Part shown: positions 30,140 through 61,623 of the stretch, piece after piece
Layout: every line of letters begins with the position of its first letter
How positions within the stretch are numbered: position 1 is the first letter of the stretch
Assembly (NCBI GenBank): GCA_026770705.1
Contig: JANJGN010000021.1
Coordinates: 96,844,001-96,908,000, forward strand
Origin: Isurus oxyrinchus
Lineage: Eukaryota
Reading direction: 5' to 3'
Length of the DNA stretch: 64,000 nt
Notes under the pieces: generated by a model
Seen by the model: only the letters and a program-made list of their open reading frames with translations
What the model was told of the DNA's origin: nothing
Database searches by the model: none
Made by a program: the position numbers and the translations under genes

Positions 30140-30480
30140 CTTTCTATTGAAACTCAGTTTCTTGCTTGATCAGCTAACGTCTCATGTTAACCTCCCGAAC
30201 GAATGACGATGAGGCGCACGTGGTTTCTTTGATTGGACAGTTCACAATACTTGGATAGTCTATTCCGATACAGGCGCAAAATATCCGAGACTCTTCCACC
30301 GGATTCTGATGACTCAAAGAGAAATATTTATTCCGATTGGACACGGTTACATCATCCAACCAACCAGCACAGAGGCAATGAGCAAACAGGAACATTTCCT
30401 TGTTTAACACAATCAACAGTGGACACAGCTCTGGGACCCAGAGATCTTTAGTTTGGAAATGAAAGGAATTTCCCATAAAC
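30140..30480 (+). promoter_or_regulatory. MHC class I promoter: X1/X2/Y-like modules, IRF element, NF-kB site
   Basis: TGACG 30204 with ATTGG 30232. CCGGATTCTGA-TGACTCA 30299-30316 with ATTGG 30336. GAAATGAAA 30456-30464. GGAATTTCCC (reverse complement GGGAAATTCC) 30465-30474. All lie immediately 5' of the leader ATG. Confidence 0.65.
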
Positions 30481-30511
30481 TGTTGATCCCTGCCTGTCAA
30501 AGGAAGCAACA

Positions 30512-30560
30512 ATGATTGGACTAAAAGTGCTGATCCTTCTATGTGGAGGGGTCTCTGCAG
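30512..30560 (+). pseudogene. MHC-I exon 1, signal peptide MIGLKVLILLCGGVSA
   Basis: ATG plus 16 codons plus 1 nt, donor CAG|gtgggt. Matches the shark class I leader pattern LLCGGVSA. Confidence 0.8.
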
Positions 30561-30699
30561 GTGGGTAATGCGATCAAAGAAGGTCACACTGGCCAGACAG
30601 GGTACTGACACGTCCACCCCAGTGAGTAATGGGATAGATGAACGACCGTGATCATGGTTGTCCCCGCATGTGTGTAAGTGTTGTTTTTGTGGGTTTCAT

Positions 30700-33600
30700 T
30701 TCTTTTACTGGGACGGGGTGGGGTGGGGGGGCGGGTGGTGGTGGGGGTTACCATTCCTGAAAGTCCCCTCCACACAGAATGATGTTGTTTCCTTTTGCCC
30801 TTTGGTATTTGAAGTTCTTCTGTGGTTATTTGTTTTCCCTGGTGGGGTTTTGGTACCAAACACTGCGAACTTAAAGAAGTGATGGCTGCAACCAGTCAAG
30901 CCCAAACCAGGGGTAGCACCATAAGGGTGGTGGTGAAAGGCAGCGGAGGAGGTACACCCATTGACTGTGCCTTCTTCATTAAGGGAATCCTCTTGGAATC
31001 CTGTGGATTTGAAGCTGCGGACATCTACTGTCTGCAGGATTTCCTCAGTGGTGGATACTTTGATGTGACTTTCAAGAATGCTGCGGCATTCGTGAGGTTC
31101 CTGAAGGTTTTTGAAGAGAAGAGAAACCTGCCACAGCTGAGAATCCTCATGTGGATGCTGTTTACTCTGCTGTCACAATGGGACCACTTGGTTACTGTGC
31201 ACCCCGACATCCCCCATGTTATTGGTGCGTTTACCTTCCTCACCAAGTACGTCGAGAAGGCTGGGAACTGCACCAAGGTCAAGGACTTTTTGGGATTTGG
31301 ACCAGCAAATGGCAGGTCAAGATTACTCTCAAGATGGATGACCCTCAGCTTCTCTATTGTGGGAGGCCGCAGCTACTTTGTATATGCCGGGCAGCCCAAA
31401 GTTTGTCATTCCTGTGGCAAATCTCGTCAGGCAGTGGCCAGCTGCAATGTCATCATCTGCATTCCACAAGCAAGAACAACATCAGACAAAGGACTGCAAG
31501 GAGACTAAGTGCTAAGGAAAACAATGATGCAGCAGATGGCCAAACATCAGCACTGCCTCCCTGCACTTTCCAATCCTCTGCAGAGCGAATCAATTGAGGA
31601 GGAACCAGCAGAGTATCAACCGGGGATTGGCAGTTGGTGAAGAAGACCAAAAAGAAGAATGGGCCAAGAAGGGACCAAGTCACCTCCCAGACGAGTGGCA
31701 AGAGGCAACTCTCATCCGACACGAGCTGCTGCTCAGATGAAGAAGGACAAGAGGTACGCCAGAAGAAGCAGCAACGCTCTAAGGAGCTGGAGGAGGAGAC
31801 ACCTGAGCTCCAAAACATTGGAGACAATGAAGAAGCCAGCGCACCACAGCTCCATGAAGCCGGGAGCAGTGAAGGATTCAACGCACCCCAGCTGCAGGAA
31901 GCAAGGAGCAGCAACGTCCCTGAGGGGAAATGGATTGGGAGAACAATCCAAGCCTCACTCCTTGCACGAATCCCCCCAGTGTCACCTGGGTGGAACATTT
32001 CCAATGGGGCAGACCAGCATATTTTCCTCAGCCCTCAAAAGGGAGACAATTTGCAAACACTATGGGTGTGCAGAAGCAGACTAAAGCTCTGAAACTGTCA
32101 AAGAGAACAGGTCTGGTAAGTGAAAAAATGCTTTAAAATGGTGAGAAAGATTGTGTGCATAAGCATGTGTAGCATTGAATCTGCTATGCTATGTGTTGTG
32201 ACTTTGGATTGCTTTTCCAAAGCCAAAGCTGTTTCTGCAGGAGTGTGTAATACCGCACCTCAGCTCCAACAGGTAATGATCACAGTGGTGGTCCCATGGA
32301 CCATTGATCTGGTCAGGAGGAAACAACTCATGTTCTTCCAGCCTGGGTATTCTGCAGCAGGGAGGCAACTTCATCATCTCTGAATTAAGGACATGGTGGG
32401 TAGTCGCCTCCTTATAACAGACGTATTGTACAAGAATGCTCTGCTCTGGTTAATTAACGTGTACGCCTCAGTTCAAAACAGCGGCGGCTGGCCGTCCTTC
32501 AGCAGCTTCCACTGTTGCTGGTGACTTCCAGACCGGTCACTCTGGGTGGTGACTTCAACTGCACCATCAATGCACTGGGCAATCTGGAAGGGTCAACAGC
32601 ACGTCCAAACTCCTGATGGAAACAGTGAAAGATGCAAAGCTGCATGACACCTTCAGCAACTTTGCAGATTGAGCGTGGCATAGATACATCTGGTAGCGGC
32701 CAGGCGGGTCCATCTGTTCTAGGATAGACTTCATTTTGTGTCCCGAGCATTCACAGTCAGACCTACCAATGTCAAGCCGATGTTCTTCTCTGACCACTGC
32801 CTCCTACTGGCTGACTGCCATTTACAGGAAGACCTCAGAGTGGCAGAGGGACATGGAAAGTGAATGTGAAACTGTTGACCCAAAAAACATTGAGGAAGTC
32901 AAGGAGCATTACAAAGGTTTGAGAACAGTGAAACCCCTCTTTGAGTCCCCTATGCACTGGTGGGAAGAAATCAAGGAGAACATCAGAGGTTTTTCGTCTT
33001 CAGTGGTGTTGAGAAGGTGAAAACGAGACAGAGGGAAATGTCCCATCTCCAGAAAAACATGCAAAATCTGCTCCAGTTTTAGTCAATGGGGGTAGATGTC
33101 AAGGAGAATCTCCAAGAGGTGAAATGCCAGCTAGCCTCTCTCTATTTGCCTCGGAGGTCTCCAAGATCATCTTCTGGTCCAAAGTCTGTTCCGTGGAGCA
33201 GGATGTTACGTGCTCGGATTTCTTCTTCCAAAAGCTAGAGAGAGAGAGGGCTCTGTGATCAGCAGCCTGAAGGAAGAAGACAGCTCAGTAAGGTCATCGC
33301 AGTCTAACATTTTGACGATCAGCAAATCTTTTCATGCTAGATTGTGTAATGTGAAGCCCACAGACAGCATGGCGTCTCAGTCCTTACTGTCTTCATCATG
33401 AAGGTGTTTGGCAACAGTACACGGGAGAGTCGGGAGAAACTGCTAACTCTGGATGCGCTGACTAAGGCCTTTAATAAGAGTAAAACCCCTGGAAGCAACG
33501 GCTTACTGGCTGAGTTGTGTTCAGCTCTGTGGGACTGGATTGGCCCAGACCTGCTGGACGTGTATAAGAGAATGCTTCTGGCCAGCATCATGTCAGAATC

Positions 33601-35647
33601 CATGAGGAAAGGCATCATCACTCTCATCTACAAGTGGACAGGGAAGATGGAGGAAATTAGAAATTAGCCACCCATTTCACTGTTGAATGTGGGCTGTTAA
33701 ATTCTGTCCAAGCTCATCACCAATTGGGCCAAGTCTGCTCTGGAGTTAGCGATCCACCCCGACCAAACCTGCGCTGTACTGGCAGAAAGATCTCTGACAG
33801 CCTTGCGCTACTCAGGGATACGATTGCCTATGTACAGGACAGTGGTGTGGACACCTGTCTTATCATCCTGAATCAGGAGAAAGCTTTTGACAGAATATTG
33901 CACACCCACATGATGGATGTGCTCTGCAAAATGGGCTCTCGGGAGGGAATCCGCAATTGGATCCAACTGCTCTACATAAACATCAGTAGTGCAGTTTCAA
34001 TCAATGGGTGGGAATCGGAAAGCTTTCCAATTAAATCTGGAGTCAGGCAGGGCTGAACCCTTTGTTGAGTCCATCAGGAAGGATTCGGGCATAAGAGGAG
34101 CGATGATCCTAGGCAGTGGAGGCACTCAAGTCAAAACCTCCCTGTACATGAATAAAGTCTGTCTTCTGCGCCATTATCGGTGTGTAGACTGATGAACATC
34201 TGCGACTAGTTGGAATTGGCCTTGGGGTCCAAGGTGAATTGCAGCAAGAATGAGGCCATGTTCTTTGGGAACTGGGCTGACTGATCTTTCGTCCCCCTCA
34301 TGGTCAGAGGTACTGGGGAATGTGCTAAAAGCTGGAAGGAGAGAATAGCTAAGGTCAAACAAAAACTGGTCATGTGGGAGTGATGGTCCCTCTCCATTGC
34401 AGGTAGGAACCTGGACATCAGGTGTGAGGCAATCTCAGAATTGCTGTACATTGTGCAGTTCTGGCCCATTCCTCAGTCCTGCACTGTGGTGATCCATCCG
34501 AGCCATCTTCCGCTTCATCTGAAGGTCAAAAATGGACCATGTTCGCAGGTACAAGATGTACAAACTTCTAAAGGAGGAAAAAAGCATACCCAACACCGCC
34601 CTCATTCTCATGGCCATCTTTGTATGTAGCTGCATCAAGCTGTGCCGAAACCCTCAGTACGCAAACACCGAGTGCCAATACTTGCTGACATGCTACCTGT
34701 TCCCGGCATTGCGATGGGTGGTTCTGGCCACTTCGCTGTGGAACGCTCCAAATAGTTGGACCATGTCGAAAAGTTTATGCAGAGAAACACCTTTGACGAC
34801 AGGTTCATCAGGCAGCAGTGTGCATGTAATTTCCTAGAGACCCTGTGGTTTGAAGAGATTGTGGATCCTGTCAGATGGTCCCCCGAGCAGACTGTCAGAA
34901 GTCATTTGGCTGAATGCCTCATCACCAAAACTTCCAAACAAGCATCTAGATGTAGCTTGGCTCATAGTGAGAAAGACTCCCTGTCAGATCCTTCCCTCAT
35001 GCCCGGAGTCTCACCCCTTCCACTGCTGCCCTTGAGGTGGCTGTGGTGGGGAAGAGACTGTTGTCCACTTCCTTGTGGAATGTTCCTTTGCAAAGAAGGT
35101 CGGAGGGAGATGCAGTGGTTTTTGCCGAGGTTCATCCCAAGCACTATTGTGACACAGGACTCTGTGCTCTATAGGCTATTCTTAGGGACGCACACCGAGA
35201 CAAAGATCAACTGCAGTTGGAGAATCATCAACTTGGTGAAAGACGCTCTTTGGTCTGTCCAAAGCTTGTTGGACATCCAGTGCTGAGTCTTGTCCTTGAC
35301 AGAGTGTTGCAAACTGCAAATTCCGAGGTCCAGGACTACTTGCTGTGGGACTCACTAAAGTTTGGGGCAGCCATCGCAGAGGCACAATAGGGAAAGGTCA
35401 CTGTCTAAGATCTTCAACCATAGAACACCCAGGGACTGGAAACTGTAAAACCCCTCATGTTTCATGATTCACATTGAATGTATACAGTAAATATTACATG
35501 TATCACAATTATATTGAAGCACCTCAGAGTGCACATGATCTATATAGAAAACTTGAATTTCATTGCATTTTCTGTGATGGCTATTTGAGATGTTTTGTAA
35601 TGTTCTTTTAGACATTTTATGAATAAAGTATTCTTTTGCAAAAAAAA
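30700..35647 (+). mobile_element. near full-length L1-Tx1 LINE (ORF1 from 30882; ORF2 ~32137-35408), decayed
   Basis: ORF1 has IYCLQDF...FDVTF...GQPKVCHSCGK. ORF2 has INVYAS, GGDFNC, KTPGSNGL, LNQEKAFDRI and SGVRQG. AATAAA at ~35622 and a poly(A) tail at 35640-35647. The 5' boundary is approximate. Confidence 0.85.
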
Positions 35648-35769
35648 GGGATCAGAGGGCTTCTCACTACCATTGGAGAGAAGAAGAGGGAGAAACCATG
35701 GTCACTTTGAGTGGGACTGTTAGGCAAATTGAGGGACAGATTCATTGGGCTGAGACATAGAGAGAGGAA

Positions 35770-38700: not shown

Positions 38701-39150
38701 CGGGTTGCATTCCACCAATCAGAATATTAGCCTGTTTATCCCCAATCTCTGTCTCCTACTTCACAAACTATTTTCAGACCAAAATCAGAAGATTACTCCA
38801 ATTCCATAAACCCTCATTTTCGCAAACAATCTCTTGTGTGGAATGGTAGCAAATGCCTTCTGGAAATCTTTGTGAATAATGTCCATCAACACTCCCTTAT
38901 CTTTCATGTCGTTTACCTCCATTTCAACTAAATTGATCAGACCTCAGTTACTTTTTACTCACCCATGGCTCCCTCTGATCAGCTAATTTTTATTCTTGTG
39001 CTCAGCCACTCTGTCATATCAGATTCTAATTGCTTCCTCAATCTGAACATTAAACTGATTCCCTATAACTACAACCTTTCTGTTCTGCTCCTCCTTTTCC
39101 ATGGTGCTTTGGTCACCTATCCAATAGCCTTCCTCCTTATCCCTGCAGGT
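35770..39150 (-). mobile_element. stack of CR1 fragments with a Penelope-like piece (37780-38350, +) and a nested CR1 tail (38152-38298)
   Basis: LEYCVQYWSLYLRKD and MEYNVGKCEIIHFG motifs. Hammerhead-like core at 38099-38138. TTCACAGA TSD around the nested tail. Confidence 0.7.
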
Positions 39151-39299
39151 AGCAAATAAAACATAACTGTTAGTCAGAACCAGACTCTGTGGTTCTCCCT
39201 TCCTAATCTCTATTAGATACCCTAATCTTGATAACTGTCAATTGACACTCCTCTTACTGAGCCTGAATATCTCTACTTGGTGTTAATGAGTCAGAAGTA

Positions 39300-39430
39300 A
39301 GCTAGACCCCTATCCCTCAGTATGTCAGTGGGTAGGTTACCACAGACCCCCTCCCTTAGTCTGTTAGTGGGAGGGTTACCCCAAACCCCTCTCCCTCAGT
39401 CTGTAAGTGGATGGGTTACCCCAGGTTCCT
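39300..39430. repeat. ~40-bp tandem repeat x3
   Basis: Repeated ccctcagtctgt(t/c)agtgggagggttaccccag unit. Confidence 0.7.
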
Positions 39431-39667
39431 CTTCCTATGGGGATTTATATTAAGTATTTGAGGAATTAGATGCTGTATTCAGTCACTCAGTGGGTGATTA
39501 TTCCCATTGGTCAGTATAGAGACAGGGAGCCTGAATGGGAGAGGGAGGAGTGGGCCACAGACTCAACCTATAGCAGATAGTGTTCAGTGTAATTGGGCCC
39601 ATGGCTTGGCCTATAACTGATGGTGTTCAGTGTGACTGGGTATTACTTACAGAGGTTGCTAACTTAC

Positions 39668-39817
39668 CTCTCTCTGTGGGGTTGGTTTTTTGAGGTTCAT
39701 GCCCTGATATCCCTCTCTCTGTGGGGTTGCTGTTTTGGGATTCATTCCCTGATGTCTCTTTTTGTGTGGGATTGGTATTTTGGGGCCCATGCCCTGATCT
39801 CCATCTCTGTGTTTCAG
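39668..39817. repeat. ~45-bp tandem repeat x3 ending at the alpha1 acceptor
   Basis: Repeated ctctctctgtggggttgg...catgccctgat unit. Confidence 0.7.
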
Positions 39818-40078
39818 GCTCTCACACTCTCTGGTATTGCTTTACATCAATGACCCCGATTCCCGGCATCCTGGAGTTTGTGATTGTTGGTTATGTGGAC
39901 GACATGGAGTTTGTTCTGTATGACAGCAATCAGAAGCAGATGATTCCTCGACAGCGCTGAATGGCGGAGAGCAAGCATCCCGAGTATTGGAAGCAGCAGA
40001 TACAGACCACATAGGCCTGGGAACAGGCTCTGGGAATCAGCATTCAGAACCTCTTGAGCAGGACCAACCAGACGGGCG
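39818..40078 (+). pseudogene. MHC-I exon 2, alpha1 domain
   Basis: GSHTLWYCFTSMTPIPGILEFVIVGYVDDMEFVLYDSNQKQMIPRQR*MAESKHPEYWKQQIQTT*AWEQALGISIQNLLSRTNQTG. Splice sites tttcag| and |gtgagt. Confidence 0.92.
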
Positions 40079-40189
40079 GTGAGTCCTCACCCTCCCACTG
40101 CACACAGCGCATCCCACAGGTCAGGTCCGGGAATGGGATGACAACCCGAGACTAGGAGAGCAGGGAGTTGGGATTAGGGGTGTAGGCTA

Positions 40190-43100
40190 TATAGAACCAT
40201 TGAGCCATAGAAAAGTTAAAGCACAGAAGGAGGCCATTCAGCCTATCTTGTCCATGCCAGCCCGAGGACACCCAGGTGCCCTTTCTAATCCCACCTTCCT
40301 GCACCCGGCCCATAGCCTTGCAGCTTACAGCACTTGAGGTGCAGATCCAGGTACTTTTTTGAAGAGTTTAGAGTTTCTGCCTCCACCACCAACTTGGGCA
40401 GCGAATTCCAGACACTCACTACCCTCTGCGCAAAAAAGTTCTTCCTCATGTCCCCCCTATACCTTCTGCCACTTATCTTGAATCTATATCCCCTGGTTCT
40501 AGAATTCTCCACCAAGGGAAATAATTTTATCCTGTCACACTCTATCTATTCAAACAAAGAAGAAAGAAAAATACAGAACAAAAACAAAAATACCTGGAAA
40601 AACTCAGCAGGTCTGGCAGCATCTGCAGAGAGGAGCACAGTTAACATTTTGAGTCCGAATGACCCTTCAACAGAACTAAGTAAAAATAGAAGAGAGGTGA
40701 AATATAAGCTGGTTTAAGGGGGGGGGGTGGCGGCGGGGGTAGGGTGGGGGGGGTGGGGTGGTGGCGCTGGGTGGGACAAGAAGATTTGGATAGAGGGCCA
40801 GTGATAGGTGGAGATAACCAAAAGATGTCACAGACAAAAAGACAAAGAGGTGTTGAAGATGGTGATATTATCTAAAGGAATGTGCTAATTAAGGGTGGAA
40901 AGCAGGACGAACAATGTACAGATAGCCCTAGAGGGGGTGGGGTGGGGGTGAAGGAATCAAAAAAGGCTGAAAGGTAGAGATAAAACAATGGGTGGAAATA
41001 CATTTAAATATAATGGAAGTAGGTGAGAAAAGAAAAATCTATATAAATTATTGGGAAAAAAAGTGGGGGGGGGGAAGGACAGCACAGGAACAGGCCCTTC
41101 AGCCCTCCAAGCCTGCGCCGATCATATTGCCCGTCAACTAAAACATTTTGCACTTCCGGGGTCCGTATGCCTCTATTCCCATCCTGTTCATGCATTAGTC
41201 AAGCTGCCCCTCAAATACCACTATCGTACCTGCTTCCACCACCTCCTCTGGCAGCGAATTCCAGACACTCACTGCTCTCTGCCTAAAAAATTTGCCCCGC
41301 ACATCTCCTCTATAGTTTTCTCCTCTCACCTTAAATCTATGTCCCCTCGTAATTGACTCTTCCACCCTGGGAAGAAGCTTCTGACTGTCTACTCTGTCCA
41401 TGCCACTCATAATTTTGTAAACTTCTATCAAGTCGCCCTTCAATCTCCGTCGCTCTAGTGAGAACAATCCGAGTTTCTCCAACCTCTCCTCATAGCTAAT
41501 AATCTCCAGACCAGGCAGCATCCTAGTAAACCTCCTCTGCACCCTCTCCAATGCCTCCATATCCTTCTGGTACTGTGGCAACCAGAATTGCAGGCAATAC
41601 TCCAAGTGTGGCCTAACCAAGGTTCTATACAGGTGCAGCATGACCTCCCAGCTTTTATACTCAATACCCCTGCCAATGAAGGCAAGCATGCCTTCCTGAC
41701 TACCTTATCCACCTACGTTGCCACTTTCAGTGACCTGTGGACCTATACACCCAGATCCCTCTGCCCATCAATGCACTTAAGGGTTCTGCCATTTATTGTA
41801 TAATTCCTGCCTGTATTAGACCTTCCAAAATGTATTACGTTGCATTTGTCCAGATTAAACTCCATCTGCCATTTCTCCACCCAGGTCTCCAACCGATCTA
41901 TATCCCATTGTATCCTTTGACAATCCTCTTCATTATCTGCAACTCCTCCAACCTTAGTGTCGTCTGCAAACTTATTAATTAGCCCAGTTACATTTTCCTC
42001 CAAATCATTTATGTATACTTCAAATAGCAAAGGTCCCAGCACTGATCCCTGCAGAACTCCACTAGTCACAGCTCTTCATTCAGAAAAGCACCCTTCCACT
42101 GCAACCCTATGTCTTCTATGACCAAGCCAACTCTGTATCTATCTTGCCAGCTCACCTCTGATCCCGTGCAACTTTACCTTGTGTACCAGTCTGCCATGAG
42201 GGACCTTGTCAAAGGCCTTCCTGAAATCCATCTATATAACATCCACTGCCCTTCCATTGTTGATCATCTTTGTCACTTCCCCGAAAAACTCGATCAAGTT
42301 AGTGAGACATGACCACCCCTTCACAAAACCATGCTGCCTCTCATTTGCTTCCAAATCCTGTCACGAAGAATCTTCTCCAATAATTTCCCTACCACTGACG
42401 TAAGGCTCACTGGCCTGTAATTTCCTGGATTATTCCTGCTCTCCTTCTTAAGCAATGGAACAACATTGGCCATTCTGCAGTCCTTTGGGACTTCACTCGT
42501 AGCCAGTGAGGATACAAAGATTTCTATCAAGGCACCAGCAATCTCCTCCCTTGCCTCCCTCAGTACTCTGGGGTAGATCTCATCTGGCCCTGGGGACTTA
42601 TCCACCTTAACATTCCTCAAGACGCCTAACACCTGCACTTTTTTGATCTCAACATGATCCAGGCTATCTACACATTCTTACCTAGACAAATCAACCGCTA
42701 GGTCCTTCTCTTTGGTGAATACTGATGAGAAGTATTCATTTAGTATCTCTCCCATTTCTTCTGGCTCCACACACAGATTCCCACTCTGTCCCTGAGTGGG
42801 CCTACCCTTTCCTTGGCAACCCTCTTGCTTTTTACAAATGTATAAAAGGCCTTGGGATTTTCCTTAATCCTGGTTGCCAGTGACTTTTCATGACCCCTTT
42901 TAGCCCTCCTGACTCCTTGCTTAAGTTTCTTCTTACTTTCTTTATATTCTCCACGAGCTTCATCTGTTCCCAGTCTTCTAGCCCTTACAAATGCTTCCCT
43001 TTTCTTTTTGACTAATGTCACAATATCCTTTGTTATCCATTCCTCATAATTTTGCACACTTCAATCAAGTTTCCTCTCTGCCTTCTTTGTACTAAGGAAA

Positions 43101-46070: not shown

Positions 46071-46749
46071 CATGAAAGGGACTGGATCAGGGCCTGGAAA
46101 GAGCTGAAGAACCAGGAGAAGGGGACAGAGAGAGGGTTACCTGTACCCCAGGGAGTGAGGGTTAGGGAGATGGGGGCATGGTGTGGAAAGTGCTCCATGT
46201 TTTGGGGAGGGTGGGAAATGTCCCTTACACTGGGGACGGGGGTAGTTCTGAATCTGATTCCAGGGTGAACCACCCTCCCAGCGGTATGCCTATGGTGAGA
46301 GGCCTCACATTGACTGTTTCCACCTGGCTCACATGGTGGCTTCTTGACAAGTCTCGAGAGCCTAGCCCCCAGCTATATGTCCTTATTCCACCACCGCTCC
46401 CTCTGTGTCGCTCTGTTCCCCCTAGTGTCTCTCTTCCCCCCCCCCCCATCTTTCTTTTCCCACCATGTCTCTCTATTCTCCCAGTATTTCTCTAATCCCC
46501 CCCCCAACTTAGTTAACAGGGTCCAAGCCAGCTGGTGAAGTCAAAACTAAGACACAGGGCCTTTCCTTGCTGAAAGAGTGTATTGACTTTGTTCTGTGTC
46601 AACACTCCTCACCTCCACCTAATGTCCCAGCTATCCCTTGGTTATGTGTGCTCAGTTACCCATCCCCTGTTTTCCTTAATTGCTGTTAACAAACCTTAAC
46701 AATGAAAATTCACATCAACGGATCTTAACAATGTAATTTATAAGACATT

Positions 46750-47600
46750 GACACCCATGTCTCTCTATTCTCTCTGTGTCTTTCTGTTCCCCCCAGCAAC
46801 TCTCTATTCCCCCCTTGTATTGCTCTCTAATCCCCTCCCCGTGTCTCTCTATTCCTCTGTGTGTCTCTCTCTATCCCCCACTTGTTTAACTATTTTTCCC
46901 AGTGTCTCTTTATTCCTCCATGTCTCCCTACTTATCACGCCTGTGTCTCTATTCCCCCCGTGCCCCCCATTTCCCCCCGTACCTCCCTGTTTCCCCCGTG
47001 CCTCTCTGTTTCCCCCCACCGTGCCTCCCTGTTTCCCCCATGGCTCCCTGTTTCCCCCGTGTTTCCCTCGTGTTTCCCTGTTTCCCCCCATGTCTGCCTG
47101 TTTCCCCCTTGTTTCCCTGTTTCCCCCGTGTCTACCTGTTTCCCCGTGCCTGCCTATTTCTCCCCATGTCTCCTGTTTGCCCCATGTCTCCTGGTTTCCC
47201 CCATGTCTCCCTGCCCTGTCATCTTTCTCTGTTTCCACCCTCCACCGTCTCTCTGCTGACCCCCATCTCTCTGTTCCCCCTACATTGCTCTCTGTCCCCC
47301 TCCGTCTCTCTCTGTGCCCCCAACTCTCTGACACCCCTGTCTCTCCCAGCCCTCCTGAATCGCTCTGTTCCCCCATCTCTCTCTATTCCACCAACCTGTC
47401 TCTCTATTCCCCCGTCGCCTCTCTCTGTCCCCTTCCATCTCTCTCTGTCCCTCCATCTCTCTCTGTCTCCCACTGTCTGTCTGTCCTTCTCCCCCAATGT
47501 ATCTCTGCCCCCCATCTCTCTGTCCTTCCCCACCATGTCTCTGTCCTGCCACTGCCCCCCATGCCCCCCCTCCCACCCTGCCAATGTATCTTTGTCTCCT
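46750..47600. repeat. pyrimidine-rich minisatellite / low-complexity tract (~19-bp cctgtttcccccgtgtctc core)
   Basis: About 850 bp, almost purely C/T-skewed on +. It ends ~65 bp before the alpha2 acceptor. Confidence 0.85.
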
Positions 47601-47665
47601 CTGTGGAGGATGACTACTGTCCTTGTGAAGCAGGCTCTGGTTGACTGTGTGTGTTTGGTTGACAG

Positions 47666-47938
47666 GGATCCATACCTATCAGCTGATATACAGTTGTGAG
47701 ATGTGGGATAATGGGAGCACCAATGGATTTGAACAGTTCGGCTGGGATGGAAAGGATTATGTCAACTTCGACAAGGATCATATGATCTGGGTAACTCGTG
47801 TGACTTGGGGAGAGCTGAGCAAGAACAAGTGGGACCAGGCCCCAGGCTTCAACCAACATGTGAAACATTACTTGGAGCAGGAGTACATTGAGTCGCTGAA
47901 GAGATACCTGATGGAAGGAAAAAAGGAATTGAGACCTT
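47666..47938 (+). pseudogene. MHC-I exon 3, alpha2 domain
   Basis: GIHTYQLIYSCEMWDNGSTNGFEQFGWDGKDYVNFDKDHMIWVTRVTWGELSKNKWDQAPGFNQHVKHYLEQEYIESLKRYLMEGKKELRP. Second Cys is replaced by Tyr. Splice sites gacag| and |gtaagt. Confidence 0.92.
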
Positions 47939-48164
47939 GTAAGTGTGTGAAAGGGGATTGACAGTCAATAACTGGGGGTGGGTGGAACCGAGAACCAGCG
48001 AGTGAAGGGGATTGAGAGTCAGTGAGGGAGGAGGTGACTGAGGGTCTATTTTCTAATCCCCAATTGAAAAGGTCTTGTACAATTCCCTTGTGGTTTAAAC
48101 ACAATTTACAGATCTCTCACCATCTCACACAGACTTGGCTCTGATCTGTTTTACTCTCTCTCAA

Positions 48165-48440
48165 TCACTCCTCAAGTGTTTAGTCCTGTGGACAAGGCTT
48201 CATCCACTAAACTTACTCAGCTCTCCTGCCTCCTGATGAGATTTTACCCTTGTGATATCGAAATTACTCTGCTGAGAAATGGCGAGCCGATCACGGACAC
48301 ATATTCCACTGACATCCTGCCCATCCACAATGGCACCTACCAGCTCAGAAGATGGGCTCAGATCAAGATGGAGGACAGAGCCACTTATTCCTGTCAGTAT
48401 GAGTACAGCAGCAAAGAAGGAGTGGAGACCAGAGATTGGG
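48165..48440 (+). pseudogene. MHC-I exon 4, alpha3 Ig C1 domain
   Basis: TPQVFSP...LSCLLMRFYPCDIEITLLRNG...GTYQL...ATYSCQY...W. The acceptor is AA at 48163-48164; donor |gtaaga. Confidence 0.9.
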
Positions 48441-48569
48441 GTAAGAGGAACAGTGATTGCAGGGACAGTGTCTGTCAGTGAGGTTTGAAGATGTTTATAA
48501 TCACCTCTCCTCATTGCACCTTCCAAAATTAATCATCACACACTTTGTTACACTAAGCTTCATCGGTCA

Positions 48570-51500
48570 CCTGTCTGTCCATTTGACTGGTCTGTGACCC
48601 CCTGAAATCTGTTGCAATCCTCTCTCTGATTACTACATTTGCAAGATTTGTACCATCTGCAACTTTGAAATTATGCCCTGAATACCCAAGTCCAGGTCAT
48701 TAATATAGATCGAAAAAAGCAGCAGTCCTAATACCTACCCCATACCACTATATACTTCCCTCCAATCTGAAAAGCAACCATTCACCATTACCCCCCACTT
48801 TCTGTCTCTTAGCCAATTTTGTATATACACTGACACTGTCTCTTTTTCCCCACAGCTTTCAATTTCACAAGAAAGTCTATTATCAGATCCTTTTTAAAAA
48901 TCAATGTATAAAATATCAACTGCACTTCTTTCATCAAGTTTCTCAGACACAATTTGCTTTTAACAGTTCTATGCTGGCTGTCAATTTATTAACCCAAGTT
49001 TTTTTTTTACCGAGAGAATTAATTTTGCCTTGGATTATTAAAAAGAGAAGATCTAGGTAAGGGAAAGCAAATGATTGTGACTTCAGTTAGAATTGATGAA
49101 TAAAAAAGGACATATGAATATAATGGGAGTTGTCTACAGGCTGCCTGATAACAATTATGAAGTAACACAGAATGTTTTAATTCAGAGATTAGAGAGGCTT
49201 GCAGCAAATGAAGAGGTTTATTTTTAAATGGGGGACTTTCAATTTCACAGTAGCACAAGAGAAACACAGTAACTCATGTCAGAAAGATATTGAATATCTT
49301 CCTTCCATATAGTTCCAGGGTGTTCTAGAGCCAGCAAGAGGGAAAGGAGTACTCAATTTAGGATTGAGTAATGAACCAGATGTAGCTAATCTAACAAGAA
49401 AGGAACATATAGCTAACGGTAGTCATAATATAATCATATTTAATGTTGGTTTTGAAAAGGAGAACTTTGATAGTTACTAAGATTCTACATTGTGGTAAGA
49501 CTGGCTCTAAACGGAATGAGACAGAGAGTGACAACAGCAAACTAGTCAAAACTTTTATCAGGAAAATGTACAGATGAACTGTAGAAGTTCAGAAAATAAT
49601 GTAGCTCAATAGATATCTTGGGCTTCATAAATAGAAGCAGTGTGTACAAAAGCAGTGAAGTTCTGCTGAGTTATGCTCTTGTTAGGCCACATCTAGAGTA
49701 TTGCTTCCAAATCTGGTCATGATACTTTAGAAAGAATTTGAAGGTCCTTGAAAGTGTGCAGAGGAGATTTACCAGAATGTTTCTAGGAATGGGGTGTTTT
49801 AGTTACAACGTTAGGTTGGAAAGCCTGGGGTTATCTCCTTGGAGCAAAGGAGATTGAGGGGAATTTTGATAGAGCTGTAAAAGGTTATGGCAGGTTTAGA
49901 AAAGGTAGACCAAGGAAAATCTCTCCCCATTAGCTAATGGTAAAAGCACGAGGGGACATAGATTGAAGATTTTGGGCAAGAGATACAGGGAGGATGTGAG
50001 CAAGAACATTTTTTATGCATCTTGAGGTAATGACCTGGAACTTGCTGCCCATGAGGGCGGTGGAAGAGGAAACAGTCAATGATTTGTAAAATAAATGAGA
50101 TAGGCACTGGAAAGAAATAAACTTACAGGGCTATGGGGATCGAGCAGGTGAGTGGGACTGCCTGGATTCCTCCATGGGGAGCCAGCACTAAGTTGATGGA
50201 CCAAATAACCTTAAATTACTTTTTGACTCAAATAAATAATCTGTACATATCCCTAAGGAGCAAGAGTTCTACCTACCAAATAAAACAACCCTGGCCAGCA
50301 AAGGAGGCAAAAGATAATATAAAACTCAAGAGAAAAGCATAGTGTAGATCCGAGGGACAATAAGATAGAATAGAGAACAGCTAAGGAGACAAAAAAGTCA
50401 GCAAGAGTTGCAAAATGGAATTCAAATGGAACTTGCAGGTGACATTGAGATGTGCACAATTTTCACAATCATAATGAAAGGAAGAGGGTATTTTTGGCAA
50501 TTTAAAAAAAACAAATTGGGTAATATTATAATGAAAATAAGGAAATAGCAGATTTTTGCTAAATAATTACTTTGTCAATCTTCACAATCTAGGAAGAAGA
50601 TAATATACACCTGACAGTCCAGGGAATTAATTAGGAATCCATGACTGGAATAAACTTAATTAATGTAAAAGAAGTATACAGTGTTGGAAAATGGCACTAA
50701 AGTCTAACAAATCCCTTGAGTTTTAAAGGAAGTAGTTGGGGAAATTCCAGGTGTTTTAGCCATAATCTTCCAAAGATCTCTTGATTCAGGAATTGTCCTT
50801 ATAGTTTGGAAAATTATTAATGCAACTCCATTATTTAAAACAGACGAGAGAGAGAAACCAGGAAAATATAATCCTATTAGTCTAAGTTTGAGCTGATTGG
50901 AGAGACCCAGCTTGGATTTGTAATGCAGAGATTATGTTCCTTCACTGTCACTGGGTCAAAATCCTGGAACTTGATCACTAACAGCACTGTGGGTGTACCT
51001 ACATTACATGGACTGCAGCATTTCAGGAAGACAGCTCACCATTAACTTCTCAAGGGCAATTAGCCAGCAATAATGCTGATCTAGCCAGCGGCACCCACAT
51101 CCCATGAATGAATAAAAAAAATGATATCCAATGAACCTAATTGAACTTTTTAAGGAATTAACCGAATTAGTAAACAGGAGAATGCCATGGATGTAGTTTC
51201 TATGAATTTCCAGAAGGCCTTCAATAAGGTTTTGCATAAGAGACTGATTAAACCTCATGAAAAGGCATATTATTGGCCATTTTTGGAGACTGGTTAGGGA
51301 GTAGAAGACAGAGAGTAGGAATAAAGGATATACTCAAAGTAGAAGAAAATGACTAGTGGGTCTCACAAGGATCTGTGATGGGGCCTCAACTATTCACCTT
51401 ATTTATTAGTAGCTTAGATAACACAATTGAGAGCCACATATCCATCTTTGCTCAGGACACAAACATTGGTGGCAGTGTAAGTGGTGTAGATGGGAGCATA

Positions 51501-51985
51501 ACATTTGGAAAAAAAGACATTGAGAGAAAGTGGGTGTGGTTGATGGATTTCAATACATGGATATGTAAAGCCATCCATTTTGGACCAACTTGGTAGATAG
51601 GAGTAATTTTTACATCATGAATAACCTTGATTAGGTCACATCCAGAGTGCTGTGTACAATTCTGAGCACCACACCTTCAGAAAGGATAGATCAGCCTTGG
51701 AAGGACTGCAGCACAGATTCACCAGGATGTTACCAGGGCTCCAAGGTTTAGATTATGAGGAGAGAGTAAACAGACTAGGCTTGCATTACATGGAACTTAG
51801 ATAGTTAAGAGGTGATTGATTGAGGTTTTTAGGATTTGGAAAGGTATTGAAGGCATAGAAAAAGAGAAATTTTTTAACTGATGGGGAAACTCTAGGACCA
51901 AGAGCCATCACTTTCAAATCAGAACCTGATCGTCCAAAAACAGTTAGGAAACACTTCTTCACACAAAGCATGGTAGAAATAAAAC
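48570..51985. mobile_element. mosaic of old CR1 fragments (mostly +)
   Basis: GDFN/F, GPQLFTLFISSLD...FAQDT and CR1 tail motifs. Confidence 0.65.
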
Positions 51986-51989
51986 ATTA

Positions 51990-54900
51990 AAATAAAAAAA
52001 AGATATAAAATAATTAAAATAAATTCCTAAAACACATACCTGTGTAATTAAGTAACGTAAAACTTTTAGTTGTATCTGTGGGTGGTATTAGCATTAAATA
52101 AACACAGTAAATTGTAGTATATATAGGAATTCTGTAAATTAATCAAGAAAATAATTAAAATAAATTAGTAAATTAAAATAAATTGGAAAACAAATACTTT
52201 GTGGGATGTGGGAGGTCGTACATGCACAAAGTGCCCTCGATGACTACATCTGCAAGAATTGTCATCAGCTACAGAAACTTATGGTCTGAGTTGCGGAGCT
52301 TGAGCGGTGGCTGGAGTCACTGTGTTGTATCTGCAAGGCTGAGGATTACATGGATAGCACATTTAGAAAGGTGGTCACACCAGAGCTAAGACGTACACAG
52401 ACAGAGAGGGAATTGGTGACTGCCAGAATATCTAAGAGAAACAGGCAGGTAGTGCAGGAATCCTCTGAAGCTATCTCACCCTCTAACTGTTTTTCCATTT
52501 TGGATACTGGCAAGCAAAATGGTTCCTCAGAGGAATGTGCAAGAGCCAAGTCTGTGGTACCACAGGTGTCTCAGCTGCACAGGAGGGGAGGAAGAAGAGT
52601 GGAAGTTCCAAAGTAGCAGGGGATTCCATAATTAGGGGAACAGACAGGCGTTTCTGTGGATGTAGACATGGTTCCATGATGGTCTGTTGCTTCCCTGGTG
52701 CAAGAGTGAAGGATGTCACAGAGCGGCTGCAGGACATTCTTTTGGGGGAAGGTGAACAGGCAGAGGTCATGGTCCACACTGGGACCAATGACATAGGTAG
52801 GAAAAGGGATAAGATCTTGAAAGCAGATTATAGGGAGTTAGGAAGGGAATTAAAAAGCAGGATGTCAAGACCAGTAATCTCAGGATTATTCCCAGTGCTA
52901 AGTGCCAGTGAGCATAACAATAGGAAGGTTCAATATGTGGCTGGAGAAATGGAATAGGAGGGAGGGCTTTAGATTTCTGAGGCATTGGGACAAATTCTGG
53001 GGCAAGTGAGACCTGTACAAGAAGGACGGGTTACACCTTAGCAGGACTGGGACTAGTATCCTCGTGGGAAGGTTTGCTAGTGCTGTTGGGGAAGGGTTAA
53101 ACTAGATTGGCAGGGGGATGTGAACCTGAGGGAAAATTCAGAGTGCAGAAGAGAGAAACTGACAGTGGGAAGTAGTGAAGTATCAACCGATAATGAAGAT
53201 ATATCAGAGAGTAGTATCAAGGTGGATAGAATTCAAGGAGAGTTTGATCGAATTAGTATAGGCAATAGTAAGATGTTAAGTGGGGTCAGAATAAGGGGGG
53301 AAGGTAAAGAGCCTAAATAAGGGCTAATGTGCATGTATGTGAATGCACAGAGTGTGGTTAATAACATTGGTGAATTGCAGGCACAGGTTAACAAAAGCAA
53401 TTGTGATATTATTGTCATAATATCCAGGCTCAAAGAAGGGCAAGACTGGGCATTAAATATTCCTGGGTACAAGGTGTTTAGGAGAGACAGGAAAGGAAGA
53501 AAAGGGGGGAGAGGGCTGAGTGGCAGTGTTGATTAAAGATGGCATTACAGTACTGGAGAAAGAGGATATTCCAGTGGGATTAAGGATGGAATCTCTCTGG
53601 CTAGAGGTAAGGAATGAAAAGGGCGCAATAACATTTGTTTGTGTAGTATATGTACCACCAACTTGTCGAAGGAATGCAGAGAAACAAATTTGCAAATAAA
53701 TTACAGAGAGGTGCAAGAATTATAGAGTAATCAAATAGGGGACTTCAATTATCCAAATATAGACTGGGATAGGAATAGTACAAAGGGACAAGAGGGGAGG
53801 GAGATCTTGGAGAATGTTCAAGATAATTTCCTGCAGAAGTTTGTTTCCAGTCGAATGAGAGGATATGTACTTTTGAACCTGATTCTGGGGAATGAGTTGG
53901 CCCAAGTGGATCAAATATCAGTGGGAGAGCCTCTAGGGGACCGTGACCATTGTATCATAAGGTTTAAGTTAATCATAGAAAAGGACAGGGTGCAATCCAG
54001 AACAGGGATAATTAACTGGGATGAGAATGCATCCCAGTTGAGTGAGCTGGAATCAAATGATGATAGAAAAGATGGTGGCTGAACAATAGGCTACCTTCAA
54101 TGAAAAAGTATTTCAGGCACTGTCAAGGTACATTCCCTTGAAGGGGAAAAACAGGACAAATAAATCCAGAGCACCCTGGTTGATGGGAGGGATAGCGGTA
54201 AAGATGAAAAGGAAGAAGTGCACGTGTGTTAGGTGGAAAAAACAATGGAAAATCAGGCTGAATATAGAAGGATCGGGGCGGGGGGTGGGGGGGTTGTGGT
54301 TGCTTGGGGTGTGGGGGGGGGGGGGTGGTGAGTGAAGAAACTAATAAGAAAAGCAAGGAGAGAGCATGAAAAGAGACTGGCAGCAAACATAAAAGGGAAT
54401 CTCAAGGTCTTCTATCAGCATGTAAATAATACAAAGGTGGTAAAAGAAAGAGTAGGGCCGATTAGGGACAAAAAGAGGGATTTGCATGTGGAGGCTGGAG
54501 AAATAGCGGAGGTGTTGAACAAGTACTTTGTATCTGTCTTTACAAAGGAAGAATATGCTACTCAGGCTGAGGTGATGGAGGTGGTAACTGGTACACTAGA
54601 CAAACTTATAATTGAGAGGAAGGAGATGTTAGAAATGCTATCTTTACTTAAAATAGGTAATGTATCAGGACCAGATGAGATGCATCCAAGGATACTGAGG
54701 GAAGTGGGAGTGAAAATTACAGAGGCACTAGTGATAATCTTTCAGTCTTCCTTAGACACAGGGGTGGTGTCAGAGGACTGGAGAATTGCGAACGTTACAC
54801 CCTTGTCCAAAAAGGGGTGCAAGGATACATCCGGCAACAACAGACCAATCAGTTTGTCCTCAGTGGTAGGGAAACCTCTGGAAACTATAGTACAGGATAA

Positions 54901-56335
54901 AATCAATAGTCACTTAGACAATTGCAGGATAGCCAGCATGGATTCATTAAGGGAAAATCATGTTTAACTAACTTGCTGGAATATTTTGAGGAGATAACAA
55001 GATGATAAGGGAAACTCTGTTGATGTTTAAAAGGCATTTGATACAGTGCCACACAACAGACTTCTGAGCAAAAGGGAAAGTAGGCACTTGGGTAAGAAAT
55101 TGGCTGAGTGACAGGAAACAGAAAGTAATGATAAATGGTTGTTTTTCAGATTTAGAGGAAGGATTGTAGTGGAGTTCCTCAGGGGTCAGTGTTGGGACCC
55201 TTGCTCTTCCTGATATATATGTTAATGGCCTGGACCGTGGTGTGCAGGGCATGATTTCAAAATTTGCAGATGATACGAAGATTGGAAACATCAACAATGA
55301 TGGGGATAGTCTTGAACTTCAAAAGGACATAGACATGTTGGTGGATTGGGCAGACAAGTGGCAGATGAAGTTCAATGCAGAGAAGTGTGAGGTGATTCAT
55401 TTTGACAGTACAAATATGGTGAGACAGTATAAAATAAAGGGAGAGCTTCTAAAGGAGGTGCAGGAACAGAGGGAACCTGGTGTGTACATATATAGGTCAT
55501 TGAAGATGGCAGGGCATGTTGAGAGAGCAGTTAATAAAGCATATAGTAACTTAGGCTTTATTAATAGGGGCATTGAGTACAAGAGTAAGAAGGTCATGTT
55601 GAACTTGTATAAGACACTAGTTAGGCCTCATCTGGAGTACGGCGCCCAGTTCTGGGCACTATACTTGAAGAAGGATGTGAAGGCATTGGACAGAGTAGAG
55701 GAGATTCACAAGGATGTTTCCAGAGATAAATAACTGCAGCTATGAGGATAGATTGAAGAGATTGGGTCTCTTTTCCATGGAGAAAAGAAGGCTGAGAGAA
55801 ATCTTGATAGAGGTATTCAAGATCCAGAGGTGTACGGACAGGATAAATAGTGAGAAACTATTTTCACTCAAGAGAATATCAAGAACTAGAGGGCGCAGAT
55901 TCAAAATAATTGGCAACAGGAGTAAATGTGATGTGAGGATTTTTTTCACCCTGAGGCTCTTTGGAGTCTGGAACAAACTTCCTGAAAAGGTGGTGGAGGC
56001 AGATTTGATCGAAGTATTCTAAAGGATAAAAGCAAAATACTACAGATGCTGGAAATCTGAAATAAAAATAGAAAATGTTGGAAAAACTCAGCAGTTCTGA
56101 CAGCATCTGTGGAAACAAGAACAGAGTGAATGTTTTGAGTTTGTATGTGTCTGTATGATCCTTCTTCAGACCCATTTCTATTCAAAATGAGTTTGGACTG
56201 CTACCTGAAAAGAAGGAATGTGCAAGGTCATGGGGATAAGGCAGGGGTGTGGGACTAGGCAGAATGCTCTTTCAGAGAGCCAGTGCAGACTCAGTAGGCT
56301 GAATGGTCTCCTTCTGCACTGTAAAGACACAGTGA
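51990..56335 (+). mobile_element. full-length decayed CR1 LINE (ORF1 esterase, ORF2), with a Penelope-like tail nested at ~56020-56175
   Basis: VAGDSIIRG...HTGTNDIGR esterase motifs, CMYVNAQSVVN, ORF 54332-54967, ISKFADDTK, and a CR1 3' tail. Confidence 0.85.
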
Positions 56336-56629
56336 AGTACAGGATTCTCCCACTAAAAGCAATACATGCTTTCTCAATTCATTTTGAATCCGAGGTCGAT
56401 ACATTTTTTGGCAGCTAAGGAAATTAAGGGATATGGAGTTAAGGTATAGATCACATGATCTAAATGAATAGTGAAACAAACTCAAGGAATGGAAAGGCTT
56501 TGTGGTTCCTTTTACATGTCTTGTTCATTTTTTCCCTTTATCCCATATTTTTCTTATCCTTTTACATAACCTGAAAGCTGATATTACTACAATCACTGTT
56601 TCCCAAAATGTTCCCCCACTGAAACGTGC

Positions 56630-57620
56630 TGCACTTTTTCTTTACTCTTTCATGGTGTGTAGATGTGACTGACAAGGCCAGCATTTGTTGTTCATCCTTA
56701 AACGCTATGAGAAGCTGGTAGTAAGCCATCTTCTTGAAGCACTGCATGTACACCCACAGTACTGCAAGGGATGTATTCCCAGGTTTTTGACCCAACAACA
56801 TTGAAGGAGCGGTGATGTGCTTTCAAGTCACAATGCTTTGTAAATTAGAAGTGCAATTGAAAGTGGTGGTTTTTTGGAGGAGGTAAGGTTTATGGGTTTG
56901 GAAGGTGCTTTCGAAGGAGACTTACTGAGTTGCTGCAGTGCATCTTGTATATGGTACACATTGTTGCCACTGTGTATTGATGGTGGAGAAAGTGAATGTT
57001 TAAGGTGATGGATGGGATGTTGATCAAGCAGGCTGCTTTGTCCTGGATGGTGTGAAGCTTCTTGAGTGTTGTTGGAGCTGCACCTCGAGGCAAGTGGAGA
57101 ATATTGCATCACACTCCTGACTTGTTCCTTAGAGAAGGTGGACGTACTCTGAGTCAGGAAGTGAGTTGCTTCCTGCAGAATTCTCAACCTTTGACCTGTC
57201 CTTGTAGCCACAGTATTTATATGGCTGTTCCAGTTAAGTTTCTGGTCAGTGGTAACCCCCCAGGATGTTGATTCTGGGGGATTCATCAATGATAATCCCA
57301 TTGAACATCAAAGGGAGATGATTAGATTCTGTATCATTGGAGATCAACACTGCCTTGCACTTTTATGGCATGGCTTTTACTTGTCGTTTACAAGCCCAAG
57401 CCTGAATGTTGTCCAGACCTCATTGCATGTGGACACAGACTGCTTCAATTTCTGAGAAGTCATGAAGCGTATTGAATGTTATGCAATTATCAGTGAGAAT
57501 CCCTAGTTCCAACCTTATGCTAGAGGAATGGTCATTGATTGAGCAGCTAATGATGGTTGCAGCTAGGTCACTACACTGCAGTGAAATACTAGGGCTAAGA
57601 TAATTGCCCCCCCAAAATCA
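56630..57620 (-). mobile_element. CR1-clade LINE 3' part
   Basis: GAAPTTLKKLHTIQDKAACLI...TIYKMHCSNS motif. Confidence 0.7.
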
Positions 57621-58174
57621 CAACCATCCTGTAATGCCTCTGTGAAGTGCCTCAAGATGTTTTATAATGTTAAAGATGCCATTATTTCCATTAAATACAC
57701 TAGGCACTGAAATGACTCCTCTATAGTTCCCTAACTCTATCCAATTAGATCCTTCCTTTGAGTTCTCAAACGCATCGTTTCTTTCCAGTGCAGTAACAGT
57801 ACCTTTGATCAATACTGTCACTCCCTCTTTCCTTTCCTCCTACCCCCATCATTCTCATTCCATGAGCCTATTCTGAAACTAGTGTGAGATTAATCACTTG
57901 CATAGATAACCAGAAATGACTTGGGAAAGAAGCATATCTGCATAAAAGCAATAACCTGAATATATTTAGCTTCTTTGATGTAGATACAAAGTGCTTCAGA
58001 GGAGTGTAATCGAAGGTACACTGAACCTTTCTAACCTAAAACATTCTCTGATCAGATAGTCCATCACATCACAGACTCTGATTGAATGCAACCTCAGGCA
58101 TGGCTTTGGTACAGTTGTTCCTGAATGATCAGCCACTGTGGGTATTCATTGATCTCCTCCTCATTCCCCCACAG

Positions 58175-58297
58175 ATGGGACCTTCCAAGTACCTCCAGGA
58201 TCTCCAGAGGGAATGAATCACAAGTTGATTGTTGGAACTTTTGCTGTCATGGTTCTGATTGGTCTTGTCATCAGTGCGGTTGTGTGGTAGAGGAGAG
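58175..58297 (+). pseudogene. MHC-I exon 5, connecting peptide and transmembrane segment
   Basis: DGTFQVPPGSPEGMNHKLIVGTFAVMVLIGLVISAVVW*RR. Splice sites ccacag| and |gtaaga. Confidence 0.85.
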
Positions 58298-58728
58298 GTA
58301 AGAAAGGAGGACAGAGTCTGCACTCTTGGAAATGAGCATCTTCAAATGTTAAAGCACAAATGTCAGAATGTTAGCGACTTCCCCTAGACATGTGGGAAAC
58401 TGACACACTGTCCAGTAATGTGCAGGGACTGAGGGGCCTGGGCCGTAGAAGGAGTCGGGGGATCGAAGAGCCATAAGGGAAGTGAGGGGACCAGGGAACT
58501 GTATAGGAAGTGAAGGGACATGGGACCCATAAGGAAAGTGAAGGGACTGGGTACCTGGATGGGGAGTGAGAGGAAGGAGCAAAGGGAGAATATTGTCTGA
58601 TGCCTTTGTCTTAGTTGAGCAACATGAGTCTCTGTGAGTGAGCTCAGGTAAATCTGGTCATTCCCCTTGTGAGTGTACAGTAGGTTTGTGGGGGTTTGAT
58701 GGGGAAGTTCTGTTTCTGTCTCTTGTAG

Positions 58729-58764
58729 GAGGAGAGCAAAAATCCGGGTACAGCCCAGCAAAAC
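58729..58764 (+). pseudogene. MHC-I exon 6, cytoplasmic (GGEQKSGYSPAK)
   Basis: 36-nt exon carrying the conserved class I GYxxA tyrosine motif. Splice sites ttgtag| and |gtaagt. Confidence 0.85.
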
Positions 58765-58922
58765 GTAAGTGTTCAGATCATACCAGGGTGGGTCATGTGT
58801 CTGTGTGTGGGATCTCTATACCCTTCTATGTCTGTGCCTTTGTATCTATCTTTCTCTGTCTGTGTAAGAAGGGTTGTAATGTTGTACAATGTCTGTGTGA
58901 CAGAAATCTGACCTTTCCACAG

Positions 58923-58969
58923 CTGCTGAAGGAGGAGAATCATCATCAAACTCATCAGCCCCAGCTTGA
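58923..58969 (+). pseudogene. MHC-I exon 7, cytoplasmic (PAEGGESSSNSSAPA*)
   Basis: Acceptor ttccacag|, Ser-rich class I tail, TGA at 58967-58969. Confidence 0.8.
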
Positions 58970-61583: not shown

Positions 61584-61589
61584 GTCTCT

Positions 61590-61623
<34 letters not shown>

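Follow-up and report, generated by a model that had tools for sequence, protein, structure and literature searches.

An MHC class I gene occupies positions 30512 to 58969 of the window, the whole stretch of 64,000 nucleotides that was analyzed. Exon reconstruction yielded seven exons that splice to 1,065 nt without a frameshift, with all six introns in phase 1, GT at 6/6 donors and AG at 5/6 acceptors, the exon 4 acceptor being AA; re-splicing thus bears out the exon count, intron phase and length proposed in the sequence-only reading. The leader, alpha1, alpha2, alpha3, transmembrane (TM) and tail exons of a class I heavy chain are all present, homology to class I was found across alpha1 to alpha3, and the best PDB match of alpha2 is the nurse-shark class I structure 6LUP (E 4e-30, far above chance). 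The features of the gene and its surroundings are as follows.

7985-8680, minus strand: C2H2 zinc-finger exon with seven fingers in an open frame
About 20690-21340, plus strand: decayed zinc-finger look-alike resembling the exon at 7985-8680
30310-30473, plus strand: promoter-like motifs, TGACTCA at 30310, ATTGG at 30336, GAAATGAAA at 30456 and GGAATTTCC at 30465
30512-30560, plus strand: exon 1, leader, 49 nt, alignable to shark class I leaders
30813-35300, plus strand: decayed LINE in intron 1, presumably L1/Tx1-type, with a ZCCHC3-like ORF1 piece and an RT piece
39818-40078, plus strand: exon 2, alpha1, 261 nt, stops TGA 39958 and TAG 40012; Y7, Y59, R84 and N86 intact
41200-46100, minus strand: LINE relics in intron 2, which we take to be CR1-type
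47666-47938, plus strand: exon 3, alpha2, 273 nt, C164>Y at 47884; S143 and S167
48165-48440, plus strand: exon 4, long-type alpha3 (UAA-2/squalomorph type), 276 nt
52200-56000, plus strand: CR1-type LINE relic in intron 4, with OSK/esterase-like ORF1, endonuclease and RT pieces
58175-58297, plus strand: exon 5, connecting peptide and TM, 123 nt, TAG 58288 directly past the TM helix
58729-58764, plus strand: exon 6, cytoplasmic, 36 nt, Tyr retained
58923-58969, plus strand: exon 7, end of the cytoplasmic tail with the natural TGA, 47 nt

AATAAA signals follow exon 7 at 59243, 59494 and 59551. Relative to six of the eight relatives compared (other long-alpha3 relatives plus Stegostoma P0363), exon 5 has one codon fewer, and P0363 has the length seen in the window. 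Recognizable repeats or LINE relics make up about 50-58% of the gene span, which at 28 kb is unexceptional because the catshark "MHC-Ia like" genes cover 47 and 69 kb. The promoter-like motif match occurs once in the window, against 0.16 expected by chance, and 15 of 100 shuffles contained one; the candidate motifs, which we take to be X2/Y-box, ISRE and NF-kB elements, are suggestive by position alone. The zinc-finger exons, one intact and one decayed, lie upstream of the gene, on the one side seen. Pfam scans of 54 long and 91 flank frames in the window returned zinc-finger and LINE domains only, and no TAP1/2 or PSMB8/9 was found among these frames, a scan that exons shorter than 58 codons would escape. 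The flank scan covered 91 of 106 listed frames, including 9829-10077; 14 of the 15 omitted overlap frames in the 54-frame scan, and repeats of the 9170-9499 type lay outside it. The region of class Ia/TAP/PSMB linkage can be as short as 87 kb or as long as 1.9 Mb (PMC10751288).

The lesions of the gene are the TGA and TAG in exon 2, the TAG at 58288, a TAC (Tyr) codon at 47884 and the AA acceptor at 48163-48164, each located where the sequence-only reading had placed it. The open frame and the alpha2 disulfide of a functional class I molecule are therefore missing (three stops and C164Y), and since the first stop lies within alpha1, the gene can no longer yield a class I protein. The acceptor loss alone need not have killed the gene, as an in-frame AG at 48175-48176, with a strong pyrimidine tract and 4 codons into exon 4, could be used at a cost of those 4 codons. 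Reads from two other samples of the window's species (organism A), X5 and X6, have the window's state at 47885, 48164 and 58288, and all of their differences from the window, 14 and 17 respectively, are accounted for at other sites. In organism B, a related species about 2% away, the AA acceptor is shared and a private stop, TAA at 48209 in exon 4, is present in both runs; C164>Y is found in organism A only. Runs X1 to X3 contain 93/93 sampled words of 47600-48500, though they may be the source sample itself. These observations leave very little probability for a live gene that was misassembled or mis-called, or for a rare null allele, a reading to which the exon 2 stops lend some room because the read check spanned 47600-58400, and so the exon 3 to 5 sites, with the exon 2 stops outside it. 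At the three read-checked sites that reading is effectively refuted. Thus, the proposed comparison of the stops with reads and other individuals upheld 58288, along with the Cys and acceptor sites, and the gene is dead rather than an assembly error.

Classical class I molecules hold the peptide termini with eight anchor residues. Seven of the eight are retained in the window (Y7, Y59, R84, K146, W147, Y159 and Y171) and the other is changed (T143>S); in the alignment we also found the N86 sequon and the cytoplasmic Tyr, all as the sequence-only reading had listed. Its step from these anchors to a classical type is not supported, since the non-classical nurse-shark Q8WLW4 and three UAA-2 rows keep all eight, and anchor retention is consequently no proof of classical status. 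Ser143 and Ser167 (TCG at 47893) occur jointly in 2 of 32 aligned rows and in no UAA-type row. They are shared with Mustelus asterias XP_078075264.1 (P0003, an unnamed 196-aa class I model), which makes both of them traits of the lineage rather than lesions; the earlier classification of Trp167>Ser as a lesion is not supported on this ground and because Ser167 is preserved through a synonymous change in organism B. Classical UAA is marked by high allelic polymorphism in alpha1-2 and by high and broad expression; in exon 3, no difference was listed for two other organism A samples, but a dead gene is silent on past selection. According to PMC8918614, the N-terminal end of the groove is opened in pig SLA-I with Ser167, a residue that it has in common with the window gene; the lineages are unrelated, and the likeness is a functional analogy only.

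Mustelus P0003 also shares R136, M103 and V124 with the window, but it has an open frame and Cys164, and its model ends after alpha2. The two are 78% identical over alpha1-2 (75% in alpha1 alone) and are joined in the alpha1-2 tree with starred support of 99/95, with end branches of 0.21 versus 0.065. Because P0003 is without alpha3, orthology is a matter of alpha1-2 alone, and alpha1-2 lineages are found on both alpha3 types (P0019/P0025). A separate triakid-UAA-type protein of Mustelus, P0328, is 53% identical to P0003 in alpha1-2. Deeper in the tree, AU tests did not reject placement with Triakis UAA (0.22), horn-shark P0008 (0.37), Squalus Q8HWH7 (0.26), UAA-2 (0.21) or UBA (0.12); the p of 0.003 for window plus Triakis plus P0328 is discounted because those UAA rows form no clade themselves. 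Stegostoma P0363 was set aside as a distant ortholog at support of 69/75. The window has no UAA-2 alpha1 motif and is not part of the starred 98/99 UAA-2 alpha1-2 clade. Together, these comparisons support assignment of the peptide-binding domains to a UAA-related family rather than to a UBA or UGA-like lineage. UBA identity was rejected on UBA's short alpha3 and its changed C-terminal anchors (I143 and R146), and UGA identity on alpha1 and alpha3, with one UGA-like row in the trees. UDA, UCA and UFA were set aside by eye, their labeled alpha1 and alpha3 sequences being unlike the window's, with no such rows in the trees. UEA has a hydrophobic groove without the anchor residues, and anchor retention argues against it.

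For alpha3, the window grouped with UAA-2 and squalomorph genes in two trees, each time in a starred clade (99/97 and 100/99). Grouping with triakid UAA was rejected (AU 7e-10), as was grouping with all short-alpha3 galeomorph UAA and UBA (AU 4e-4). Per-domain trees, which the sequence-only reading had proposed, thus put alpha3 with UAA-2 and squalomorphs and alpha1-2 with P0003, its deeper placement not fixed. A UAA-like duplicate, as previously suggested, holds for the UAA-related alpha1-2; alpha3 lies outside galeomorph UAA. The long alpha3 is also seen in Squalus, Pristiophorus and Heptranchias proteins. The gene shares 7/8 anchors, N86 and the cytoplasmic Tyr with classical shark UAA (6LUP/AF220063; Triakis O46840 and O46821), but galeomorph UAA is intact, with a short alpha3, T143 and W167. 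Squalus acanthias Q8HWH7 (AAN77874), which we take to be the dogfish classical UAA, resembles the window in its long alpha3 (64%) and very similar TM and tail, and differs in alpha1 (56%) and alpha2 (58%) and in retaining T143 and W167. The galeomorph-type alpha3 of classical UAA is absent from the window, a distinction inapplicable to squalomorph hosts. The gene could derive from the host's classical UAA, as a duplicate that died or a locus that was abandoned, if the classical gene there has a long alpha3: seven anchors and the promoter-like motifs persist, alpha3 matches squalomorph proteins at 64-70% identity, and squalomorph grouping is unrejected for alpha3 (AU 0.11) as for alpha1-2 with Q8HWH7. 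We consider this unlikely, since the closest alpha1-2 is triakid and on a short branch, the best alpha3 tree joins the window to galeomorph sequences (starred, 95/85), and no UAA-type row has the S143/S167 pair.

Between organisms A and B, exons 3 and 4 differ by 9 nonsynonymous or nonsense and 3 silent changes (pN 2.1%, pS 2.8%), counts that are small (Fisher p 0.71), and introns differ by 1.7% (9/542), the exons diverging as quickly as the introns. Eight of 10 private changes at conserved alpha2 and alpha3 columns are common to organism B, among them G>S, D>N, V>I and R>W in alpha2. Since the split from P0003, 17 changes were window-derived and 6 Mustelus-derived (p=0.035), with 16 sites unpolarized. 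Departures at conserved columns number 6/39 in alpha3, inside the range of intact relatives (0-8), and 6/29 in alpha1. The sole lesion seen in both species, the acceptor, is the one with the substitute AG, and the absence of frameshifts is somewhat improbable for 4-5.5% decay (assumed indel ratios give P 0.001-0.18). Decay is likely to predate the split of the two species (about 2-5% neutral change), and the earlier view that the gene died recently is doubtful given the acceptor loss and private changes common to organism B and the similar divergence of exons and introns.

The shared acceptor loss could also mean that the lineage turned into an alpha3-less class I gene, by skipping exon 4 or ending after alpha2, which functioned, died later and may be alive in Mustelus. 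Skipping exon 4 would preserve the frame because it is 276 nt, and XP_078075264 is a leader-alpha1-alpha2 model whose end resembles intron read-through. Gene models shortened by annotation are common, however, and the Mustelus model may be one; the private alpha2 decay is in both A and B, and alpha3 erosion does not exceed that of alpha1. Such a stage is improbable, and we give similarly little credence to the fuller version, an open-ended S143/S167 groove lineage on a UAA-2-type chassis that passed through an alpha3-less stage and lives on as an alpha1-alpha2-only Mustelus molecule.

We favor, with a probability of roughly 0.72, a seven-exon class I pseudogene that was decaying before the species split and represents a "class Ia-like" locus of its own, not a recent classical copy. 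Zinc-finger genes surround the elasmobranch "MHC-Ia-like" genes, which are located near the bona fide Ia gene, include nurse-shark "UAA-2" (PMC10751288) and resemble the window gene in UAA-related sequence, long alpha3/TM/tail type, zinc-finger neighbors and a size of tens of kb (PMC10751288). In the window we found the UAA-related sequence and, on the upstream side, the zinc-finger surroundings. UAA-2 shares the long alpha3 type; it differs in its alpha1 motif, its own starred alpha1-2 clade and conserved alpha1-2 groove sequence, which the window lacks, and in not being a pseudogene. The best reading is therefore a unitary pseudogene of these zinc-finger-flanked loci (PMC10751288), possibly of an unnamed S143/S167 sub-lineage. 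The living gene would have encoded a surface molecule that paired with beta2m and bound peptide in a slowly changing groove, which, by analogy with pig SLA-I, S167 may have left wider open at the peptide N terminus. The locus was probably one among several redundant UAA-related loci and may have been lost through point mutation in a process of birth and death.

A birth-and-death family such as class I is expected to contain pseudogenes, and zinc-finger-flanked Ia-like genes have already been reported in sharks, so the significance is modest and chiefly for shark MHC specialists. Anchor residues cannot single out a classical gene, and such a locus could pass for an allele in MHC diversity surveys. 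The S143/S167 sub-lineage, possibly unnamed, has one other species among the matches listed, and the loss of a locus common to two species provides a datable case.

Splicing of the seven exons, together with inspection of codons and splice sites, bears out the exon coordinates and lesions proposed by the sequence-only reading, and the MHC class I gene is a real but ordinary pseudogene. The exons, located between positions 30512 and 58969, join into 1065 nt, and each intron is a phase-1 intron with a GT donor; of the six acceptors, that of exon 4 is AA and the other five are AG. Stops are found at 39958, 40012, and 58288, the first stop today being at codon 64, the second alpha2 cysteine is changed to Tyr (47884), and position 167 is Ser. 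Among 492 PDB sequences matched, the top match of alpha2 was the nurse-shark class I structure 6LUP (E 4e-30). Exon 5, which encodes the connecting peptide and TM, has one codon fewer than most long-alpha3 relatives, a difference that is in frame. Class I promoter-like motifs are retained upstream of the ATG (30310-30473), and 30350-30562 can be aligned with the upstream extension of the horn-shark protein P0009. A LINE relic (30813-35300, plus strand), which we take to be L1/Tx1, starts about 250 nt past the donor of exon 1 and lies in the gene's sense orientation. Recognizable repeat or LINE relic makes up about half of the gene span. The size of the gene is ordinary, since Ia-like genes of the catshark extend over 47 and 69 kb and the MHC genes of the nurse shark are reported to be 3 to 5 times larger than their mammalian counterparts (PMC1513397).

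Of the 24 sequencing runs listed, 20, from two organisms, contained at least half of the 47600-48500 words, and four of these 20 were compared with 47600-58400. Two of the four, X5 and X6, are further samples of the window's species (organism A); they differ from the window at 14 and 17 positions, none of them at 47885, 48164, or 58288, all of which are covered, so these lesions are real and common to three samples of this species. In organism B, a related species about 2% away, the run X14 piece over 47600-48690 differs at 21 positions, encodes Cys at 164, keeps Ser167 via a silent change, has the AA acceptor, and carries its own stop, TAA at 48209 (also in run X9). The exon-4 acceptor is the only lesion shown to be common to both organisms, and an in-frame alternative AG lies 12 nt downstream of it, a caveat for the dating below. 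In the small runs X5, X6, and X9, depth over 47600-58400 is in the hundreds for unique intron and about zero for LINE, a pattern like that of repeat-masked tiling capture, so the region may already be under study by others.

The nearest protein is Mustelus asterias XP_078075264, a 196-aa model ending after alpha2 (75% identity in alpha1 and 82% in alpha2). It shares Ser143 and Ser167 with the window; only 2 of 32 aligned rows have this combination, so both are lineage traits, and Trp167>Ser is not the lesion it had been taken for. Functional molecules with Ser167 exist, and in pig SLA-I this residue reportedly opens the N-terminal end of the groove (PMC8918614, in part). In alpha1-2 trees (a quick tree of 62/88 rows and a careful tree of 31 hand-picked rows), the window and the Mustelus protein form a pair (supports 99/95*) that belongs to neither the UAA-2 clade nor the UBA clade; by eye, alpha1 of UDA, UCA, UFA, and UGA is plainly unlike that of the window. 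For the deeper alpha1-2 placement, no fair alternative was rejected (AU 0.12 to 0.37).

Alpha3 (trees of 49/87 and 29 rows) is more decisive for lineage placement. Shark UAA-related genes have a short or a long alpha3; that of the window is long, as in the UAA-2 lineage (a label from the PMC10751288 supplement, seen in part, assigned to rows by eye and one motif) and in Squalus, Pristiophorus, and Heptranchias proteins. The AU test rejected grouping the window with triakid UAA (AU 7e-10) or with all short-alpha3 galeomorph genes (AU 4e-4), but not grouping it with squalomorphs (AU 0.11). Retention of the peptide anchors had been read as a sign of classical type, but it does not decide the matter, since nonclassical nurse-shark Q8WLW4 and three UAA-2 rows keep all eight. 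Shark UAA-related proteins come with two alpha3/TM types, and their alpha3 sequences tend to group according to taxon, their alpha1-2 sequences according to lineage; Pristiophorus P0019 (long alpha3) and Chiloscyllium P0025 (short) fall in the same alpha1-2 lineage. This mismatch suggests exon shuffling between loci. Another class I protein with a long alpha3, the divergent Stegostoma XP_048376291, lacks most anchors; its exon 5 is of the shorter kind, and it joins the window lineage with weak support.

Organisms A and B differ at 12/549 sites in exons 3 and 4 (9 amino-acid-changing, 3 silent) and at 9/542 intron sites, small counts that are compatible with neutrality. In conserved alpha2/alpha3 columns, 8 of 10 window changes absent from Mustelus are also in B; some of the alpha3 changes, for which there is no Mustelus alpha3 to compare, may have arisen while the gene still functioned. 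The branch leading to the window is three times as long as the one leading to Mustelus. From the three stops, neutral change comes to about 5.6% (CI 1.2-16.5%), and the A-B split corresponds to about 1% per branch (1.8-2.9% total). Because frameshifts are absent, we lowered our estimate of neutral change to 2-5%, under assumed indel ratios. The claim that the gene died recently holds in sequence terms only, since even 1% change represents over ten million generations at 7e-10 per generation, a rate with a wide interval borrowed from the epaulette shark (PMC10587355, in part).

Three features surround the gene:
7985-8680, C2H2 zinc-finger exon with seven fingers
near 20690-21340, decayed C2H2 copy
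61584-61657, plus strand, tRNA-Asn gene downstream of the MHC class I gene

Extra MHC-Ia-like genes are described, in the available part of PMC10751288, as near the Ia gene, variable in number, and surrounded by zinc-finger genes. The catshark interval beyond its "MHC-Ia like" gene also has tRNA genes, trnan-guu among them. No TAP, PSMB, or class II domains were found in the 145 frames scanned within the window.

For a named lineage, the literature covered (PMC12562908 and PMC6523485 in part) gave only a general Ia-like statement; the S143/S167 lineage may already have been described elsewhere. When alive, the gene would have encoded a beta2m-associated, peptide-binding molecule, probably as a secondary locus related to UAA, with a groove that changed slowly, and it appears to have been lost via point mutation.
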